Positions 48,216 through 57,733 of a stretch of DNA of 64,000 nt are shown here, piece after piece; position 1 is the stretch's first letter, and the number at the start of each line of letters is the position of its first letter. The notes under the pieces were generated by a model, which was given only the letters and a program-made list of their open reading frames with translations, did not search any database and was not told where the DNA came from. This DNA comes from an uncultured Gemmatimonadota bacterium (lineage in GTDB: Bacteria > JAAXHH01), in assembly GCA_951812955.1 (NCBI GenBank), contig OX638340.1, forward strand, positions 3,584,001-3,648,000. The letters run 5' to 3'. A program made the translations under genes and the position numbers.

Positions 48216-49019
48216 TCAGTCCCGTCGCAGGTTGCTGAACTCCGGTTTCGGACCGCCCTCTTCACGGTCCCACTGCCACAGTTCCGTGTAGGGCGACTGG
48301 GCGTGGAAACCGAAGATGACCGGTCCGTCTTCGCCCGCCCGTTCGAGCACGTCCGGATTGACCACGCGGGGCATCTCGTACTCGCAACGGGTCCAACGCC
48401 TCCGCCAGGGGCTCAACACCGCATAGCGCGGCTGGTCGGTCTGGTTCTTCGTCGTACCATGCCAGGTATTCACGTCGAAGAGCACGAGCGATCCTTCCGG
48501 GGCGACGGCAGTCCGGGCGTTGCCATAGGCCGAATCGGGCACGTCGAGGTACTCGTACCGGTGGCTGCCCGGGACGAACTCCGTCGCGCCGTTGGTCTCG
48601 GTAAAGGGGCTCAGGCAGAAGATCGTGTTCAAGGCGATCGAGTGGCTCGTGATCCGCCGGCCCTCGTCGGCATCGGGCATGGATGCGTCCCGGTTGTGAC
48701 CGGTGATACCGCTGTCGGAATGCAGCCCGTGTCCGCCTTCACCGGGCATCACCACCGATCCGTACACGGCGCTCAAAAGCGCGTCGGGGCCCAGGAAGTG
48801 TCTCGTCAGCCTCAGATGGTCGGGAAGCTGGTAGAACCGTTCGAACACCCGCGCCTTGTTGAAGAGCCATTCGAAACTGCCCCGCTCGCGGTTGGGGTAA
48901 CGTGTTTCGAGTTCCCTTCGCGCTTCCGCGCATTCCTCTGCCGTCAACTGGTCCGTCAGGATGGTGTATCCCTCAACCTTCAGGTCCAGCACGTGGGCTT
49001 GAAAGGATTCGTCTGTCAT
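48216..49019 (-). CDS. PhyH-family oxygenase
   Basis: HSDSG HxD motif. Start at internal Met (MTDESFQAHVLDL). Confidence 0.6.
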   Translation of the reverse strand: MTDESFQAHVLDLKVEGYTILTDQLTAEECAEARRELETRYPNRERGSFEWLFNKARVFERFYQLPDHLRLTRHFLGPDALLSAVYGSVVMPGEGGHGLHSDSGITGHNRDASMPDADEGRRITSHSIALNTIFCLSPFTETNGATEFVPGSHRYEYLDVPDSAYGNARTAVAPEGSLVLFDVNTWHGTTKNQTDQPRYAVLSPWRRRWTRCEYEMPRVVNPDVLERAGEDGPVIFGFHAQSPYTELWQWDREEGGPKPEFSNLRRD

Positions 49020-49120
49020 AGGTTGATTCCGGCTCTCATGTGATGCTTGTTCGACCAGCGCAGGGTTTGGCGGATCAACGGCCGGTATGGCCATCGCCCG
49101 GTCCGCGGCGTCCGCTCGAA

Positions 49121-49936
49121 TCAGCGTCCGGCCAGGTCGTCTCCGAGGTCGGTTGCGTCCACTTTGCCTTTCTCCAGGCTCACGCCGACGACGAAGAGCT
49201 CGAGGTCATCGTCCGTATGGTTGTAGATTCCGTGAGCACTGCCCAGGTTATTCAGAATGGCGTCCCCGCGGACGACCTCCTCGGTCTCGCCGTCCACCGT
49301 GATCCGGCCCCGGCCGTTCATGATCATGTAGGCTTCGTCCACGATCTCGTGCCGGTGGTAGCCCACGGAAGTACCCGGCGGCAGTAGGATATGGCAGAGG
49401 TATTCGAAATTTGTCGTGAAATCCCGACTTCCCCATACCTCCCGGAAAAGCACTTCGCCCTTTCCACCGTGATGCCGCCGGGGCTTCAGTAAGGCGCGGT
49501 TGAACCGTCCCACGGGCAATCGATCAGCGGACTCCAGCTTGACCTCTATGCGCGGGTCGTCGAAATCCTCGCACATCGGGGTGCGGGTGGGGTCCACACA
49601 GTGGAAGTTGAAGAACCAGGTATCCTGGTCCGAGTGGTTGTAGATGCCGTGGGATTCACCCGAGCGGAGGGGCACCGCCGCGCCGCCGTCGACTTCGGTC
49701 GTGCGGCCGTTGTGGGTGAACTGCATGGCGTTGTCGATGGTGACGAAGATCTCTTCCGAGTGGATGTGCGTGTGTTGCCCGATGCCGCTGCCGGGCGGGA
49801 AGATGACAGAGTGGATGAACGACCAGGGAGACTTGAACGCCGTCGCATCGAACCCCGGGTTGAAATAGCTCGCCGCGGCGCCGCCGTGGCTGACGCCCAA
49901 TCTCATCTCTTCGCGCCTTGTATGGGTTATCCGCAT
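49121..49936 (-). CDS. Bicupin protein
   Basis: Two cupin motifs (GQHTHIHSEEIFV, YHRHEIVDEAYMI). Confidence 0.55.
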   Translation of the reverse strand: MRITHTRREEMRLGVSHGGAAASYFNPGFDATAFKSPWSFIHSVIFPPGSGIGQHTHIHSEEIFVTIDNAMQFTHNGRTTEVDGGAAVPLRSGESHGIYNHSDQDTWFFNFHCVDPTRTPMCEDFDDPRIEVKLESADRLPVGRFNRALLKPRRHHGGKGEVLFREVWGSRDFTTNFEYLCHILLPPGTSVGYHRHEIVDEAYMIMNGRGRITVDGETEEVVRGDAILNNLGSAHGIYNHTDDDLELFVVGVSLEKGKVDATDLGDDLAGR

Positions 49937-49993
49937 GCGGACCGCTCCGGACTCCCCGACGATGGCATCATCCGGGGTGTATCTGTACCAAAG

Positions 49994-50794
49994 CTAAAGG
50001 GCGACTTCCTCGACAGGCTGCGTGCCGGTCTCGTAGGCGGGCCGCCACCGGTCGTGGGCCATGGACTCCTCCTCGCTGAGCCCGCACAGCCAGTTCCAGG
50101 TGTGGATGCGGCGTCTCAGGTCCCGGTAGGATTCCACTCCACTCGTGTATGGCGCGGCCGGCCGGTCGCGGTACACGGGGATTTCTTCCGAATCGATGAG
50201 CCAGTCGCGCTGCGGCGGTGCATTGCGGAAGTAGGAGAATTTGATCATGCTGCGGGGCTTGTGATTGAGCTTCGGGCCCGCCCGGTGCCAGATGCCGTAC
50301 CGGGTGATGGCCACGGTGCCGGCCTTCACTACGAGCGAAAGCTGGCCCGTGAGATCGCCGTAGTGGGCGAGGGCGTCGCGGTTGACCGCCCGGCAGTGGG
50401 AACCGGGCAGGATCATGGTCGGCCCGTCTTCGATCCCCACGTCCTGCGGATAATAGTAGCACTGGAGTTCGTTGATCTCGTAACCCTGGCCGGAAATGCC
50501 GTCCGAATGCCAGTCCTGACCCGCGACGGGCTCGTTTATGAGGTGGTGATGGCCGCCCGTCGGCATCAGGAAGTTGGCACCGAGCAGCGAACGTATCACG
50601 CCTGCCAGCCGCGGATGGAGCAGGACTTCGCGGACGAAATCCGGTGAACCGACCAGTTCCTTCGCGCGGCCGACCTTGACGTTGCGGCACTGCGCGTTGA
50701 AACCGGGATCCACCATTTCTTCAAGCACCGCGTAACCCTTCGCCACGAAATCCATCACGTCGTCGTCGGTCATTGTCGGTCTGATCTCCGCCAT
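49994..50794 (-). CDS. PhyH-family oxygenase
   Basis: WHSDG HxD motif, distal WHRAG. Confidence 0.7.
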   Translation of the reverse strand: MAEIRPTMTDDDVMDFVAKGYAVLEEMVDPGFNAQCRNVKVGRAKELVGSPDFVREVLLHPRLAGVIRSLLGANFLMPTGGHHHLINEPVAGQDWHSDGISGQGYEINELQCYYYPQDVGIEDGPTMILPGSHCRAVNRDALAHYGDLTGQLSLVVKAGTVAITRYGIWHRAGPKLNHKPRSMIKFSYFRNAPPQRDWLIDSEEIPVYRDRPAAPYTSGVESYRDLRRRIHTWNWLCGLSEEESMAHDRWRPAYETGTQPVEEVAL

Positions 50795-50806
50795 CGCAGC
50801 GCCTCC

Positions 50807-51169
50807 TCAGTTCCACTTCTCGAGTATGAAATCGAAACCCACGTAGTCGTTTTCCAGGTCCTTGTACTCGTACAGCTTGGGGATGGGGTACTGCACCACG
50901 CGCCACCCGTCGGCAACGGCCTCCAGCACGGAGTCGTACGGCGGCTCGTCGCCCGGCAGTCTCAGCACGGGCTTCTCGCCGGGAACGAATACCACCCAGC
51001 CCACGATCCCGGACCGCATATTGGTCGACCGTGCGGTCAGGTACATGATCTTCGGCCGGGGCGGGTTTTCCAAGAACGATTCCAGCTTGTCCAGGTCCCG
51101 TTCTTCCAGTGCGCCGTTTTCGAGTTTCCCGCGGCTTTCAGCGATCCACTGCCTGATTTCCGATTGCAT
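50807..51169 (-). CDS. Hypothetical protein
   Basis: Start at MQSEIRQW. No domain recognised. Confidence 0.3.
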   Translation of the reverse strand: MQSEIRQWIAESRGKLENGALEERDLDKLESFLENPPRPKIMYLTARSTNMRSGIVGWVVFVPGEKPVLRLPGDEPPYDSVLEAVADGWRVVQYPIPKLYEYKDLENDYVGFDFILEKWN

Positions 51170-51533
51170 TTCGTGATGTCCCTTTGCCGAGTCTGACGTC
51201 GCGGACAATACAGATGCTAAAGGTGTAATGTACAAGGCGTTCTGATTATCGATGTCAGGAGTACGAATGCTCCTGCAATGGTACAGAGGCTACCGGTACC
51301 GTGTCAAGCAGGAATGAACCGTCTTTTTTGAAGGTGGTTTCGGCATGGAAGCCGCTGGTCTTGACAGCGTCCGGCACGCCGCTTAAGTTGCCTTCTGACG
51401 GTCATCGAAATGCGATCATCCAGGTCATTCAGTTCATTCCGACCAGCTGAACAGCGTGCGCAATTCGGGCAGAAACTTCCGGTCCGTCGATTTCCCGTTA
51501 CCAATTTCGATTCTCAGTTTAAAGGTATTCTAT

Positions 51534-52283
51534 ATGTCCCACGCGCAACCCCTGAATGCCCAGCAGATCGCCTACTTCAAGCTAAACGGCTACCTGGTCC
51601 TGAAGAACGTTTTCGACGAGGGAACCCTGGAGGCATGGCGGCGGCAGATCTGGCGGGCGCTCGATGGCTGCCTCGAAGATCCCGCGACCTGGCCCAGGGA
51701 AACGAGCGGTCTAGACGGGTACGATTACGATCCGCCCGAATCGGCCCTTGTGCACCATCCACAGATGATGGCGATCATCGACCAGCTCAGCGGGGGAACT
51801 TTCGTCGCTGGCGACGGCATTCCGATCATTCGGTGGCCCGATCCAGGAAAGTCCTGGGAAATGCCCCAAACGGGACATATCGATGCCTACGGGGGACGCT
51901 GGCTGCCCTTCATGATCGGCGCGACGACCTACCTGTACGACGTGGAACCCGGCGGCGGAGCCTTGATCTACTGGCCGGGAAGCCACCACGCCGCTCACCG
52001 GTACTTTCTCGAGCATCCCTCGCATGTCGACGGCAGCTTCCTGGAGATCGAGGGGTTTTCGTGGGACGTGTTCTGCGACAACCCGGCCACCGGCGGCCAG
52101 GAGTTTACCGCGAAGGCCGGCGACGTGGTGCTCTGGCATGCCTACCTGACCCACAACGGATCGGAAAATACCAGTCATTCGCCGCGCTTCGCCCTCTTCG
52201 CACGCTGGAACCATGAGAAACACCTGGAGCAGTCCTTCAGATACGAGATCCCCGAGGATCTGTGGAAGTATTGGGCGGTGTGA
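51534..52283 (+). CDS. PhyH-family oxygenase
   Basis: Start MSHAQPLNAQQIAYFKLNGYLVL. HIDAYG HxD motif, distal WHAYLTHNGS. Confidence 0.7.
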   Translation: MSHAQPLNAQQIAYFKLNGYLVLKNVFDEGTLEAWRRQIWRALDGCLEDPATWPRETSGLDGYDYDPPESALVHHPQMMAIIDQLSGGTFVAGDGIPIIRWPDPGKSWEMPQTGHIDAYGGRWLPFMIGATTYLYDVEPGGGALIYWPGSHHAAHRYFLEHPSHVDGSFLEIEGFSWDVFCDNPATGGQEFTAKAGDVVLWHAYLTHNGSENTSHSPRFALFARWNHEKHLEQSFRYEIPEDLWKYWAV

Positions 52284-52452
52284 GAGAGAACGCCTAAACT
52301 GCGGTTGTTTGATAGAAAACCGTCGTCTCGTGTAATGAGGCATACCTTAGAGCTGAAGATCCGTACAGAGATTCCCGGTTCAAGCCGGTTCGCTGTCTCG
52401 CCGTCGACAATATGATTTCGAGAACAGTCGCTGTTCCCCGACTATACTGTCA

Positions 52453-52863
52453 ATGAGCTCAGTACCGGAACCGGATCAAGAGGAAGATCTTATGGGGAAA
52501 ATCATGAATGATTCCGCGAGCGTATCCGTTTTCGAGGTCGTTGGCAACGCTCTTTGCGTTGCTTCCGACGACGGCCAGAGAGTACACGACCGACTTTCGA
52601 CTGCATTGAAGGATAGCCGCCATGTGAATCTTTCTTTTCGCAACGTGACATCGCTTACTTCGGCTTTTCTGAACACCGCGGTCGGCCAATTGTATGGAAC
52701 CTTCAGCGAAGATCATATACGTACGCAGTTGAACATCGAAGAAATGTCCCTGGATGATCTGGTGTTACTCGAGCGTGTGGTCGACACAGCGAAGCAATAC
52801 TTCAAAGACCCTCAAAGATTCGAACAAGCGCTTCGTGAGGAAATGGATGACTATGACGACTGA
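52453..52863 (+). CDS. STAS-like (DUF4325-like) small protein
   Basis: VNLSFRNVTSLTSAFLNTAVGQLYG resembles the STAS-like DUF4325 core. Low-GC islet. Its 3' end overlaps the next gene by 17 nt. Confidence 0.45.
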   Translation: MSSVPEPDQEEDLMGKIMNDSASVSVFEVVGNALCVASDDGQRVHDRLSTALKDSRHVNLSFRNVTSLTSAFLNTAVGQLYGTFSEDHIRTQLNIEEMSLDDLVLLERVVDTAKQYFKDPQRFEQALREEMDDYDD

Positions 52864-53395
52864 TTCCAAGGCGCTCGCGGTGAATGAACACGAATTCAGT
52901 CGTAGAGATAGGTTGTTTCTTGATACTAATATCTGGTTGTATCTATTCGGTCCGCATAAACCCAAGGCAAGAGCGATCGACACGTATTCAAGTGTGCTTA
53001 AGCGGATTCTGGATGCGGGTAGCAGAATCTATATCGACGTTCTGATCGTTTCAGAGTTCATCAACGCATGCGCCAGGTTGAATTGGCATCTTGCAACAAA
53101 CAGGAAAATTGGTTTCAAAGCATTTCGAAATTCGTCATCTTTCAAATCAGTCGCCAGGTCGGTGTCAAGCGACGCCGCGCGGGTTATGTCCCACTGCTTG
53201 CGTGTGGAAAGTGGATTCTCGGACATGGCCGCGACCGAATTGCTCAATGAATTTGTCACCGGAAAATGCGACTTCAACGATCAAGTTATCATAAGACTCT
53301 GTAAAAAAGAAGAACTAACCCTGATTACACACGACGCCGATTTCAAAGGCGCGGGGATTCCGATTTTGACAGCGAACCATCGTCTTCTGAACTAA
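52847..53395 (+). CDS. PIN-domain nuclease
   Basis: LFLDTNIWLY...SEF...FNDQ...ITHDADF gives the four PIN acidic positions. Intact, 182 aa. Confidence 0.6.
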   Translation: MTMTTDSKALAVNEHEFSRRDRLFLDTNIWLYLFGPHKPKARAIDTYSSVLKRILDAGSRIYIDVLIVSEFINACARLNWHLATNRKIGFKAFRNSSSFKSVARSVSSDAARVMSHCLRVESGFSDMAATELLNEFVTGKCDFNDQVIIRLCKKEELTLITHDADFKGAGIPILTANHRLLN

Positions 53396-53399
53396 TCCC

Positions 53400-54227
53400 A
53401 TGCCCGCCTACCCCCGCTACCTCACCAAAGCTCAATTGGAGCAGTTCTGGTCCGACGGCTACCTGGTTTTGAAAGGCACGCTGGATCAAGAAGTGGTAGA
53501 AAAAGCCCGCGAATTCCTGCTGGACCTGATCCCGCGGGACCTGGTCATCCCGGACCACTACCACGCGAACCACGGCCGGTTCAAGCCCCACCACCCCGAC
53601 GGGAATGGCAGCTTTTTTGAACCTGCGATGCTGCCCCTGATGCAGAACGAAGCACTTTACGGCGCTGCCGTGGATATACTGGAGACAGAATACATCCGGG
53701 TGTGGGACGGTTCGGCGGGGATAACGCTAAGAAACCGCGCCATGGAAGGACGGCTCCAGAACCTCCACCTCGACGCTGTACCGGGAGGGCCCGAAGACCT
53801 GAATGAGGGGTTCCTTCGCACGGGAATAGGTATCGGCGGATGTTATTACCTGAACAAGGTTGAAGGTGAGGGCGGCGGCATCCACGTGGTTCCCGGCGGG
53901 CCGAACCGGGTGAGGGATATCATGCTTAACGAACCGGACGGTCTGACGCGCAACAACGGCTGGGGTCATATCACCGATTTTTCGTCGTCCATGGAGGTAA
54001 CCGGTGATGCCGGCGATTTCGTGCTGATGCATCACCTGATGCCCCACTCGGCCAGCGCCAATCACAACGCCGCGCCACGGATCGCCCAGTTCACCCGTCT
54101 GCAGGCCCTGACGGACGATGACGCCCGCCTCGCTCCGGGTCCCGACCGACCCCTGGACCCCGCAGCGCTTGGCGCCCTGACACCCCTGGGACGCAAACTG
54201 TTCCGCCTGGCCCCGTGGATCGGGTAA
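53400..54227 (+). CDS. PhyH-family oxygenase
   Basis: N-terminal LTKAQLEQFWSDGYLVLKG motif, HLD HxD. Confidence 0.6.
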   Translation: MPAYPRYLTKAQLEQFWSDGYLVLKGTLDQEVVEKAREFLLDLIPRDLVIPDHYHANHGRFKPHHPDGNGSFFEPAMLPLMQNEALYGAAVDILETEYIRVWDGSAGITLRNRAMEGRLQNLHLDAVPGGPEDLNEGFLRTGIGIGGCYYLNKVEGEGGGIHVVPGGPNRVRDIMLNEPDGLTRNNGWGHITDFSSSMEVTGDAGDFVLMHHLMPHSASANHNAAPRIAQFTRLQALTDDDARLAPGPDRPLDPAALGALTPLGRKLFRLAPWIG

Positions 54228-54242
54228 TTTGTAGTTCCGCAA

Positions 54243-56216
54243 TTGGAACGGACGTACTCCATGTCCTCTGAACCTCCCCGGTCCCGTGGCCCTTCGGCCA
54301 TATCCCTGCGGGCCGGGATCATCGGGCTCGCGCTCTCCGCCGTGGTGGCTTTCTGGGGCCAGTTCGCCGCCGATCACGCCGGTTACAACTATACCACCTA
54401 CGCCCATATCCCCTCGGCGCTGCTGATCCCCTTCCTGATCCTGATCCTGGGTCCCCACGTCCTGCTCAAGAGGCTGGCGCCCGGGTACGCCCTGACGACT
54501 TCCGAGCTGATCGTGATTTTCGTCATGGGCCTGATCGGTTCGATGGTGCCCGACTGGGGCATGACGAGATACCTGGTCTCCCTCATCACGGGGCCCTTCT
54601 ACCATGCGAGTCCCGAGAACCGCTGGGCGGAGACTTTTTTCGAGACCTTGCCCGGGTGGCTCGTGATCAGCGGCAAGACGGACGCGGTACGGGTTTTCTA
54701 CGAAGGCGCCGCGCCGGGTTACCGGATCCCGTGGATGGCCTGGATCTCGCCCCTGCTGTGGTGGATGTCGTGTTTCGCCGCCCTGATGTGGACGGGCGCA
54801 TGCATCGTGGTCATCCTGCGAAAGCAATGGGTCAGCCACGAAAGGCTGCGCTTTCCCCTGGGGGAGGTATCGCTCAACCTGATGGGCGTGGCGAAGGACC
54901 CGAACGAGCCGCCCATGGTCCGCACGACTGCCTTTCGTATCGGCGCCGGCCTGTCGCTGGCCGTCGTGTGCTGGAACATCGCCTCCTACTGGGACATCGT
55001 TACCCCTATCCCCATCATGGGGCCGGACCTGCTGTATCTGAAGGTCCATCCGTCGATACCGGATCTTCCCATCCGGCTGAATGTCTTCGTACTGTGTTTC
55101 GCTTTCTTCATAAACGCCGAGATCCTGTTCAGCCTGTGTTTCTTCCTGCTCTTCACCACGCTGCAGCGGGGGCTGATGAACATGCTCGGGATCACGGCGG
55201 CCACGACCATGTCTCCTACCGGGCTCGTGGGCACCCAGTCCATCGGTGCCCTGATCGCCCTGGTGGTGTGGGGATTGTGGATGGCCCGTCGTCACCTGGC
55301 CGGTGTGGCCCGGCGGGCGTTTCGAAAGGATCCGTCGATCGATGACAGCAGTGAGTTCTTCTCGTACCGGGTGGCGGTTTTCGGATTGATCTTCGGCATG
55401 CTCTACCTGCTGGCATGGCTTTACAGCATCGGCATGTCGCTGCCCGTCAGCCTTGTCCTCCTGGCCGTACTCTTCATCGTCTACATCGGAATGGCCCGGA
55501 TCGTTGCGGAGGCGGGTCTGGTCGCCATGGACCTGCCGGTAACAGCCAACAACTTCACCGGGGGCATTATCGGCGCCGACAACCTGGACCCGTCCTCGAT
55601 CACCGCTATGGGCATGACGAACGCCTTCGCCCGGAACTGGCGGACCTTTACGATGATCGGGCTGTCTCACGCCGCCTACCTGCAGCGCTGGATGGGGCCG
55701 TCCACCCGGCACCTCTTCCTCTGGATCTGCCTGGCCTTCGCCGTCAGTGTCGTAACTTCCCTCTACTACTACATCAGCGCGGGTTATGCAGTCGGCGCCG
55801 ATAATCTGCTGTCCAAGCCCGGCGACCTCGTACCCTTCTTCTACAACACGATCATGACGTGGAACAGCAGCGCAAGCAGTGTCTCGGAACTGGAACTGAT
55901 CTTCTTCGGGAACGGTATCGTCCTGTACATGCTGATGATCCTCGGACGCTTCATGTTTCTCTGGTGGCCGCTGCATCCCATCGGCCTGGTCGCCGTGGCC
56001 GCGGACACCGTGCGGTTCATGTTCCTACCCTTCCTGCTGGCCTGGCTCGTCCAGGTAATCCTGCTGCGCCTGGGTGGAGGAGCCCTTTACCGCAGAGCGC
56101 AGCCCCTGTTTCTCGGCATCCTGGTTGGATATGTCCTTGGGATGGCCCTCTCATTCCTGGTGGACAGCCTGTGGTTTCCGGCCGCACCGCACCAGTTCGA
56201 ATCCTTTATCAACTGA
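54243..56216 (+). CDS. Large polytopic membrane protein of unknown family (paralog of the 60259 gene)
   Basis: ~14 TM segments. Conserved blocks shared with the paralog (RKQWVSHERLRFPLGE, EFFSYRVAVFG...MARIVAEAGLV, LHPIGLV). Confidence 0.6.
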   Translation: MERTYSMSSEPPRSRGPSAISLRAGIIGLALSAVVAFWGQFAADHAGYNYTTYAHIPSALLIPFLILILGPHVLLKRLAPGYALTTSELIVIFVMGLIGSMVPDWGMTRYLVSLITGPFYHASPENRWAETFFETLPGWLVISGKTDAVRVFYEGAAPGYRIPWMAWISPLLWWMSCFAALMWTGACIVVILRKQWVSHERLRFPLGEVSLNLMGVAKDPNEPPMVRTTAFRIGAGLSLAVVCWNIASYWDIVTPIPIMGPDLLYLKVHPSIPDLPIRLNVFVLCFAFFINAEILFSLCFFLLFTTLQRGLMNMLGITAATTMSPTGLVGTQSIGALIALVVWGLWMARRHLAGVARRAFRKDPSIDDSSEFFSYRVAVFGLIFGMLYLLAWLYSIGMSLPVSLVLLAVLFIVYIGMARIVAEAGLVAMDLPVTANNFTGGIIGADNLDPSSITAMGMTNAFARNWRTFTMIGLSHAAYLQRWMGPSTRHLFLWICLAFAVSVVTSLYYYISAGYAVGADNLLSKPGDLVPFFYNTIMTWNSSASSVSELELIFFGNGIVLYMLMILGRFMFLWWPLHPIGLVAVAADTVRFMFLPFLLAWLVQVILLRLGGGALYRRAQPLFLGILVGYVLGMALSFLVDSLWFPAAPHQFESFIN

Positions 56217-56310
56217 GTACTACCCTCATAAACTCACCAGAACACAGGATCGCGGAACCGTAAATGAAGCCCTGATATCGAAACCGTAAAAGAACGTCTG
56301 ACGAAAGTTC

Positions 56311-56362
56311 GCAATCATCCGAAACGGAAGCGAGACGCAATCATCCGAAACGGAAGCGAGAC
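56311..56362 (+). repeat. Perfect 26-bp tandem duplication (gcaatcatccgaaacggaagcgagac x2) spanning the sulfatase RBS region
   Basis: Copies at 56311-56336 and 56337-56362, 6 nt before ATG 56369. Confidence 0.8.
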
Positions 56363-56368
56363 GCAACC

Positions 56369-57733
56369 ATGGCCACGAAATCCGGACGCCCCAATCTCCT
56401 GTTTATCATGGACGACCAGCACCGGCACGACTACCTGTCCGCGGCGGGAGCGACCTTCGTGCGCACGCCGAACCTGGACTGTTTGGCGGAACGCGGGGTC
56501 CGATTCAGCCAGTGCATAACCAACGCCCCGGTCTGCGCGCCCGCGCGCATCGGCCTGGCCAGCGGCTACCAGCCCGCGCGGCTGGGGTGCCTGGACAACA
56601 ACTGCTACCTGCCCCGCCATATCACGCCCTATTACGTCCGGCTTCGGGACGCGGGATACCGGGTCGGGTGCGTGGGGAAACTCGACCTGGCCAAGCCGGA
56701 TCCCTACAACGGCCGCCACGGCGACCGAGCCCGGGTGTTCGGTTGGGGTTTCACCCATCCCGTGGAATGCGAAGGCAAGATGCACGCGGGCATGGCGGAC
56801 CAGCCGCGGGGACCTTATGGATTCTGGCTTCAGGAGCAGGGACTCTTCGAACGCTTCCGGACGGATTACGCGGCCCGGGGAGCGCGGGGCTGGATCGAGG
56901 GTGCTTCCCATGATTCTATATTGCCTGAGGACGCTTTCGAGGATGCCTACATTGGCCGCCGCGCCGTGGAATGGATGGACACCGTCCCCGACGATTACCC
57001 GTGGCATCTCTTCGTCAGCTTCGTGGGGCCGCACGATCCCTTCGATCCGCCTACGTCATACGCGGAACGATACCGGGGCGCTGCCGTGCCGCCGGCAATA
57101 CGAAGCAACGAAGAGGGGAAGCCGTCCTGGGTCAACGCCCGTCGGCGCGACCTGTCCGAAGATGAAGTGGCAGTTACGCGCCGGCAGTATTGCGCGGTCA
57201 TCGAACTGATCGACGACCAGGTAGGCCGGATCATCGAAGCCGTAGAACGGCGGGGCATGGCGGAGGATACCATCGTCGTGTTCGCCAGCGACCACGGCGA
57301 AATGCTGGGCGACCATGGCCTGTACACCAAATCCGTTCCCTACGAGGTGGCCCTGCGCGTGCCGCTCATTGCCGCTGGACCAGGCATAGCGGGAGGGCGT
57401 ACTTCCGACGCCCTCGTGGAACTGATCGACGTCAATCCGACCCTGTGCGGTCTGGCGGGTCTGCCCGCCCAGGAAGGGCTCGACGCCAGCGACTTCAGCG
57501 CCGTGCTCACCGGGGATCGTTCGACCCACCGCGAGGAAGCGGCCAGCGCGCTTCGCGAATTCCGGCTCGTACGCACGGCGGATCACAAGCTTGTGGTGCA
57601 CCACACGGGTGAAACGGAGCTATACGACCTGAAAAACGATCCTGAAGAGCTTGAAAACGTGGCGGCCGATCGGCCCGATGCGGTCAACGCGCTGCGAAGG
57701 CGTCTGCAGCGGCGATTTCACTTCCCGCCCTAA
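56369..57733 (+). CDS. Cys-type sulfatase (formylglycine-dependent)
   Basis: LLFIMDDQHRHD plus CAPAR (CxPxR) active-site motif. 454 aa. Confidence 0.85.
   Translation: MATKSGRPNLLFIMDDQHRHDYLSAAGATFVRTPNLDCLAERGVRFSQCITNAPVCAPARIGLASGYQPARLGCLDNNCYLPRHITPYYVRLRDAGYRVGCVGKLDLAKPDPYNGRHGDRARVFGWGFTHPVECEGKMHAGMADQPRGPYGFWLQEQGLFERFRTDYAARGARGWIEGASHDSILPEDAFEDAYIGRRAVEWMDTVPDDYPWHLFVSFVGPHDPFDPPTSYAERYRGAAVPPAIRSNEEGKPSWVNARRRDLSEDEVAVTRRQYCAVIELIDDQVGRIIEAVERRGMAEDTIVVFASDHGEMLGDHGLYTKSVPYEVALRVPLIAAGPGIAGGRTSDALVELIDVNPTLCGLAGLPAQEGLDASDFSAVLTGDRSTHREEAASALREFRLVRTADHKLVVHHTGETELYDLKNDPEELENVAADRPDAVNALRRRLQRRFHFPP

Follow-up and report, generated by a model that had tools for sequence, protein, structure and literature searches.

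VapKSC is a three-gene anti-phage toxin-antitoxin system from Escherichia sp. E4736 (PDB entry 9Z7O; EMBO J 2026, PMC13373217). VapK combines a STAS domain with a GHKL kinase domain, is related to anti-sigma-factor kinases and is thought to be activated by single-stranded DNA; it phosphorylates a conserved serine of VapS, whereupon the toxin VapC is released (PMC13373217). [quoted passage not shown] The phospho-acceptor of Escherichia VapS, S48, is buried in the interface with VapC, and the S48E substitution disrupts the binding. The D28A substitution in VapC abolishes both toxicity and defence, and the variants VapC D28A, VapS S48A and VapK F54A each lose the protection against phage Bas42 (PMC13373217). 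The accompanying census of vapKSC was seeded with VapK and listed complete triplets only (PMC13373217). The same type of gene pair had surfaced before in the classification of PIN domains, as the PIN.4 subgroup of PF01850, with 5-6 conserved active-site residues and transcriptional coupling to a DUF4325 gene, its function being given as unknown (Matelska et al. 2017, PMC5499597). The biology of the STAS antitoxin, the PIN toxin and the DNA-damage-activated kinase is therefore already published, as a bioinformatic description in 2017 and as experiments with a structure in 2026.

Here we analyse a two-gene islet in a 64-kb stretch of DNA (hereafter the window), which is predicted to encode a VapS-VapC pair homologous to both proteins of the 9Z7O complex. 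Sequence comparisons place this pair as a kinase-less variant of the known VapKSC system; the pairing of STAS and PIN proteins is not in itself new.

Gene content of the islet

The islet and the genes that delimit it are as follows:

51456-52283, upstream flanking gene, PhyH dioxygenase (Pfam)
52284-53399, no strand assigned, low-GC islet, from the stop of the upstream PhyH gene to the start of the downstream PhyH-like gene
52504-52863, plus strand, vapS, predicted STAS-like (DUF4325) antitoxin of 119 aa (Pfam, phmmer against the PDB, family alignment)
52847-53395, plus strand, vapC, predicted RNase toxin with a PIN domain, 182 aa long (180 aa if started at ATG 52853) (Pfam, family profile, AlphaFold)
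53400-54227, downstream flanking gene, PhyH dioxygenase (Pfam)

The GC content of the islet is 0.46-0.51 vs 0.60-0.65 in the flanks (vapS 0.49, vapC 0.46, flanking genes 0.61-0.65), and Pfam recognizes PhyH in both neighbors (E-values 5e-15 and 9e-7), which bears out the description in an earlier note on this DNA of an AT-richer two-gene segment between PhyH-family genes. The two open reading frames concerned, 52453-52863 (plus strand, 136 aa) and the PIN frame 52754-53395 (plus strand), are both present. The DUF4325 assignment of the 136-aa protein stands, but its length is over-extended, as the methionine at 52504 is invariant in the family alignment and provides the only family-wide conserved start (MNDSAS..., 119 aa), while other in-frame starts are found at 52492 (123 aa) and 52453 (136 aa). 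The homologs of VapS, 709 in number, are mostly 119-123 aa long, and ATG 52504 is the likely start of vapS. The reported 17-nt overlap of the two genes holds if vapC begins at ATG 52847 and shrinks to 11 nt if it begins at ATG 52853, which is orthologous to the vapC start called in the related locus L094.

Scanning 52150-53550 for consensus promoters and terminators gave no match, no palindromic operator is evident upstream of the pair, and a search for repeats around the islet found no insertion scars, only short two-copy matches. The 12-nt direct repeat CCGGTTCAAGCC at 52375 and 53576 was considered as a target-site duplication and rejected, since the copy at 53576 falls within the downstream gene. 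At the right edge of the islet the vapC stop is separated from the downstream PhyH-like start by only 4 nt (53396-53399), vs 572 nt for the same spacer in L094, and the downstream PhyH-like protein is the most diverged of the flanks (69% identity between the window and L094, vs 85-88%); because of both features the right edge also appears to have been trimmed or recombined. On the minus strand, 50807-51235 is an ORF of 142 aa, called as 120 aa in relatives, which is without a match in Pfam, NCBIfam and PADLOC; its position upstream of the PhyH gene is kept in all related genomes, and it is part of the flanking core, outside the islet. The wider neighborhood (window 48216-57733, and likewise L001 and L096) is a dense cluster of at least four PhyH-family dioxygenase paralogs with a bicupin, a DUF6785 membrane protein and sulfatases, adjoined in relatives by mandelate racemase-type enzymes, and looks like a locus for the catabolism of a sulfated substrate.

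Identification of VapS and VapC

The Pfam search of the 136-aa ORF identified the 'STAS-like' DUF4325 (E-value 3.6e-14, residues 40-102), and phmmer against the PDB retrieved a single significant chain, 9z7o_A, annotated as 'Escherichia VapS' (E-value 2.9e-14, residues 20-123), with an alignment that spans the STAS domain and the beginning of the C-terminal region. The family-invariant residues of the C-terminal part (V96, V97, A100, Y103, F104, D106, P107 and F110) belong to a protein family with a median identity of 65%, and the conserved C-terminal helix (..VVDTAKQYFKDPQRFEQA..) is intact in the window. The AlphaFold model of VapS, built from a shallow alignment of 27 sequences, reached a pLDDT of only 61, and the Foldseek hits obtained with this poor model are meaningless (best E-value 0.5); the STAS assignment is accordingly a prediction from sequence. 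Searches of NCBIfam and PADLOC (2023) with VapS gave no match, and PHROGs returned an unannotated family only. No DNA-binding domain was detected, DUF4325 alone passing the curated cut-off of Pfam, in agreement with the earlier remark that the upstream partner is not a classical DNA-binding antitoxin fold.

The vapC product matches the Pfam PIN domain with an E-value of 6.7e-10. The window PIN sequence as a single phmmer query found nothing relevant in the PDB; a profile of 45 PIN-family members identified 9z7o_C, 'Escherichia VapC', as the best match over nearly the full length (E-value 5.8e-10). All residues invariant among these 45 members are present in the window VapC (D26, N28, E70, D142, N144, D145, D163, D165, T175 and N177, in the 182-aa numbering). 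The nuclease had been described as intact with its acidic residues, and indeed every family-invariant residue of the active site is kept. One of these residues can be matched directly to the Escherichia toxin, as the profile alignment sets 'lfldaniW' against 'kflvdtnvW':

52922-52924, plus strand, codon GAT of VapC Asp26, aligned with the catalytic Asp28 of Escherichia VapC

The AlphaFold model of the window VapC (pLDDT 87.6) gave VapC/PIN toxins as all of its top Foldseek hits (7vwo, 3zvk, 5wzf and FitB); 9Z7O was not returned by Foldseek from the PDB up to April 2026. With the PIN protein as a query, PADLOC (2023) and NCBIfam yielded sub-threshold matches of the VapC family only. The reading of the islet as an unusual toxin-antitoxin or abortive-infection pair with a STAS-like antitoxin matches the experiments on the homologous Escherichia VapKSC (PMC13373217), and the pairing of DUF4325 and PIN genes is conserved elsewhere, with the S-then-C order in about 70 species-level loci.

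Loss of the kinase gene

The state of vapK was surveyed in 81 species-level loci (80 loci from species-representative genomes and the window): the gene is intact in 61, partial in 11 (truncated at the 5' end, missing an internal part, or interrupted by the end of a contig) and absent in 9. The genome loci found numbered at least 541 in all. Where intact in relatives, it encodes 290 aa and lies directly upstream, 9-25 nt 5' of vapS; the product can be aligned from end to end with Escherichia VapK (BLASTP E-value 3e-35, the query taken from Appendix Table S2 of PMC13373217), with a weak match to HATPase_c. No VapK was found in the 64-kb window, either by tblastn (E-values above 0.1) or by a VapK HMM run on the six-frame translation (best E-value 0.9), and the gene immediately upstream of the vapS islet is the PhyH gene. 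What is found in front of vapS is a remnant:

52441-52491, plus strand, 3'-end relic of vapK, reading in frame ..ILSMSSVPEPDQEEDL, left edge approximate

The relic comprises about 10-17 codons (about 50 nt), is fused in frame to vapS and forms the N-terminal extension of the 136-aa ORF (its first 13-17 codons), the former vapK stop TAG having become ATG 52492 in the window. Its peptide is similar to the tails of VapK proteins, which end with IYSLSSEVDPEDVF in L094 and follow the family consensus SY.L.SE....DIF. The motif EPD.EE[IL]L of the relic recurs in every member of the kinase-less clade (the window, L096, L001-3, L014 and L015); in L001 its reading frame is not that of vapS, which excludes it from the VapS protein. 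A further, weak blastn similarity between window 52404-52464 and the interior of the L094 vapK (E-value 0.047) is not claimed as a relic, as at the protein level the best tblastn E-value is 0.14 over 9 residues.

The loci L094 and L095, from a related genome, possess the same flanks as the window (PhyH, islet, PhyH-like gene, DUF6785, sulfatase), with flank proteins 85-88% identical at the amino acid level, and carry a complete vapK-vapS-vapC between them. At the DNA level the window and L094 are homologous up to where the upstream PhyH gene ends, and again from window 52466 onwards (L094 5963, a point 29 nt inside vapK). L094 is the nearest outgroup of the kinase-less clade, has vapK, and its VapS is 82% identical to that of the window. 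Because the 3' relic is accompanied by a full vapKSC at the same site in L094, the comparison shows that an ancestral vapK was deleted rather than never present, and that the window pair descends from a vapK-vapS-vapC operon at the same chromosomal site.

The two VapC proteins are only 56% identical, and the contrast with the 82% identity of VapS could mean that recombination has replaced part of the locus, and that its descent was not simply vertical. Faster evolution of VapC after the loss of the kinase was considered and rejected, as the 82%/56% pair falls within the scatter of the family, at its low end, and dN/dS is not raised.

In L094 the low-GC island at this site is larger than in the window: besides vapK-vapS-vapC it holds two small ORFs and an NsnB/AriA-like ABC ATPase, the GC content of all these genes being 0.40-0.47. 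The segment L094 2977-5122, at the site of window 52284-52465, holds the ATPase (464 aa, ABC-type) and the small ORFs of 153 and 83 aa; the ATPase matches NsnB of PADLOC (E-value 4e-46), PDC-M55A and AriA, while neither small ORF has a family match. Such gene content suggests that the site between the PhyH genes is a variable hotspot of defence genes.

Fate of the phospho-acceptor serine

In the alignment of the window VapS with 9z7o_A (NVTSLTSAFLN against NVKMFASPFFN) the phospho-acceptor Ser48 of the Escherichia protein has a serine counterpart:

52660-52662, plus strand, codon TCG, Ser53 of the 119-aa VapS (Ser70 of the 136-aa frame), aligned with Ser48 of Escherichia VapS

This position is a serine in all 61 loci with an intact vapK and in all 11 with a partial one. 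Among the nine loci from which vapK is absent, it is replaced by Pro, Gly or Ala in seven (Fisher's test of intact against absent vapK, p = 3e-8, phylogeny ignored), distributed as follows:

Ser: the window and L062
Pro: L014 and L015 (also L001-3)
Gly: L072
Ala: L038, L044, L068 and L079

As the kinase-less VapS proteins are mutually only 58-75% identical and come from different phyla, several independent losses of the kinase are implied by the sequences. Replacements occur also close to the window: the closest sister lineages (L001, L014 and L015) have Pro at the phospho-site, and Ser is retained in the window, L096 and P0002. Since the phospho-site is buried in the interface (PMC13373217), the replacing residues, which are small and unphosphorylatable, are compatible with continued VapC binding and incompatible with a phospho-switch.

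Several features of individual loci deserve a mention. In L017, L019, L035, L039, L046, L063, L071 and L088 vapK is 5'-truncated or internally deleted and the serine of VapS is kept; the loci with truncated vapK look like intermediate stages of the erosion that has run to completion in the window, with errors in the assembly of the metagenome-assembled genomes as another possible cause. In several Poribacteria (L038 1736-6399, L062 and L072) a VapS-like gene directly follows a large DNA methyltransferase gene, whose product has a conserved tail (..VVDIFGNDTMTIVEVSV for both L038 and L062, and diverged from this in L072); in L038 the VapS-like gene is preceded by the methyltransferase gene plus a 518-aa ATPase. 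These Poribacteria copies are without vapK, vapC is found only in L072, and the serine site is reported as Ala or Gly (L062 being tabulated with Ser); L062 keeps the VapK tail relic LASELNANDIF*. The vapS loci L061 and L071, both with only partial VapK matches, share a Caldilineaceae contig (CBDCLG010000008.1), with about 9 kb between them. Finally, L097 has a vapKSC operon beside mfd, in which a VapS of 228 aa (P0001; 6001-6687) has two DUF4325 matches and is apparently a tandem-duplicated STAS antitoxin.

Selection on vapS and vapC

At least five genomes of the kinase-less clade keep vapS and vapC as intact ORFs. The dN/dS values within this clade are 0.10-0.27 (vapS), 0.18-0.26 (vapC) and 0.13-0.17 (flanks), and complete vapKSC operons at comparable divergence show 0.09-0.22 for vapS and 0.14-0.22 for vapC. 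These values show that both genes are under purifying selection, with no clear relaxation after the loss of the kinase. The synonymous divergence (dS) amounts to 0.25-0.8 for vapS and 0.46-0.51 for vapC; its similar magnitude in the PhyH genes on either side (about 0.5) indicates that the pair has descended together with the chromosome.

Proposed mode of action and alternatives

The explanation that we consider probable for the whole set of observations is that the window carries a VapS-VapC pair from which the kinase was deleted, now a plain toxin-antitoxin module retained by selection. By analogy with Escherichia, VapS would bind VapC through its STAS domain and the conserved C-terminal helix of VapS would cover the PIN active site, keeping the RNase silent, while unbound VapC would act as a nuclease on RNA and stop growth. 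Ancestrally, VapK would have sensed single-stranded DNA and brought about the release of VapC. The least certain parts of the proposal concern the present state: with the ssDNA-sensing kinase gone, there would be no in-cis phosphorylation of Ser53 to release VapC, which would be freed only upon depletion of VapS, by its turnover or by a shut-off of its synthesis, the lability of VapS being an assumption. A kinase-independent state fits the purifying selection on both genes together with the freedom of the serine to become proline in the sister lineages. Judged by analogy, the kinase-less copy might be dead as a defence system, since VapK F54A and VapS S48A abolish the protection against phage in Escherichia.

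A bolder extension, which we put forward only tentatively and regard as possible rather than probable, is that VapS-VapC constitutes a self-sufficient module, for toxin-antitoxin action or for defence, whose trigger does not involve the kinase (candidates would be the turnover of the acidic-tailed VapS or the direct sensing of a phage factor), and that the joint loss of the kinase and the serine is a recurrent, selected rewiring, not decay.

Could a VapK paralog encoded elsewhere in the genome phosphorylate Ser53 in trans and free VapC upon DNA damage or phage infection? Such an arrangement would account for the serine kept in the window and its two serine-bearing relatives, genomes with more than one vapS locus do exist (L061 and L071 share a contig), and the high conservation of VapS makes cross-talk conceivable. 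However, the window contains no VapK over its 64 kb, and in the sister lineages with Pro both genes are kept under purifying selection, which argues that the serine is dispensable for the selected function; we consider this possibility unlikely. Somewhat less likely still is that the pair is a non-functional, decaying remnant of a disabled defence system. The deletion of vapK, the loss of the phospho-site in the sister lineages, the frequency of kinase erosion (11 truncated and 9 absent among the 81 loci) and the dependence of the Escherichia defence on VapK and Ser48 would all agree with decay, but a toxin gene free of selection is expected to gather inactivating changes, and here the ORFs are intact in at least five of the clade genomes at a dS of about 0.5, complete systems do not have a lower dN/dS than the 0.1-0.26 of this clade, and the PIN active-site residues and the C-terminal helix of VapS are all kept. 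That the two-gene DUF4325-PIN pair is ancestral or independent and never had a kinase at this locus, as might be read from the report of PIN.4-DUF4325 coupling alone (Matelska et al. 2017, PMC5499597), is very improbable in view of the vapK relic upstream of vapS, the full vapKSC in the syntenic relative, the nesting of kinase-less VapS proteins within the kinase-associated ones with the vapK-bearing L094 as the nearest outgroup, and the presence of all or part of vapK in 72 of the 81 loci.

Implications

The kinase-deleted toxin-antitoxin pair that we favor adds several elements to the published picture: natural knock-outs of the kinase, which arose several times independently; the loss of an 'absolutely conserved' phospho-acceptor serine in seven of the nine kinase-less loci; and a toxin and an antitoxin still under purifying selection in the clade of the window (dS about 0.5). 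Neither the recurrent erosion of vapK, nor the coupled loss of the serine, nor the continued selection on the toxin-antitoxin core is described in the literature searched. The published census seeded with VapK (PMC13373217) missed the loci in which the kinase gene is lost or eroded, about a quarter of our species-level sample. Because the kinase-less pair is retained even though mutants of the kinase or of the serine lose phage defence in the laboratory, a second, kinase-independent role or trigger of VapSC is suggested. The findings bear on the gain and loss of modular sensor and effector parts in bacterial immune systems, and if the more tentative reading of a self-sufficient module were true, the STAS proteins would represent a stand-alone class of type II antitoxins.

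Comparison with known systems

The closest relative, Escherichia VapKSC, shares with the window the S-then-C gene order with an overlap, the STAS domain followed by a conserved C-terminal helix, the equivalents of Ser48 and Asp28, and the location in a low-GC islet, at a site occupied by defence genes in a related genome. Unlike VapKSC, the window lacks vapK except for the 3' relic, so that the trigger leading from ssDNA through the kinase to phosphorylated VapS is absent in cis; the window proteins have low identity to the Escherichia ones, with the PIN protein detectable by a profile only; and proline occupies the phospho-site in the sister lineages. The PIN.4 subgroup, a VapC-like PIN coupled to a DUF4325 gene, corresponds exactly to the pairing seen in the window, to which it was matched by description; the 2017 account is bioinformatic and leaves the kinase unmentioned.

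With the partner-switching modules (SpoIIAA/SpoIIAB, RsbV/RsbW) and with CapK/CapS the pair has in common a STAS protein with a serine at the phospho-acceptor position and, in the ancestral operon, a GHKL kinase. It differs from them in that the locus is without a kinase and has no sigma factor or transcriptional output, and VapS is not, as CapS is, a DNA-binding repressor; no PP2C-type phosphatase is annotated among the neighboring genes of relatives. The suggestion of a partner-switch-like module acting on a PIN RNase, also made in the earlier note, fits Escherichia VapKSC and the ancestor of the locus, but not demonstrably the locus as it stands, the kinase being absent from it and from the 64-kb window.

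The type II VapBC systems differ from the window pair in several respects: the window antitoxin is a STAS protein without a detected DNA-binding domain of the AbrB, RHH, HTH or Phd type, the N-terminal domain by which the antitoxins of VapBC autoregulate their operons, VapS in 9Z7O leaves the catalytic Mg2+ in place while many VapB proteins displace it, and the window PIN protein has about 180 aa compared with about 130-140 aa in a typical VapC. In both, however, a small upstream antitoxin gene overlaps the gene of a PIN toxin, the predicted PIN fold of the window protein matches the VapC toxins, and without its kinase the window pair would be likely to behave, as VapBC does, as a two-component toxin-antitoxin system.
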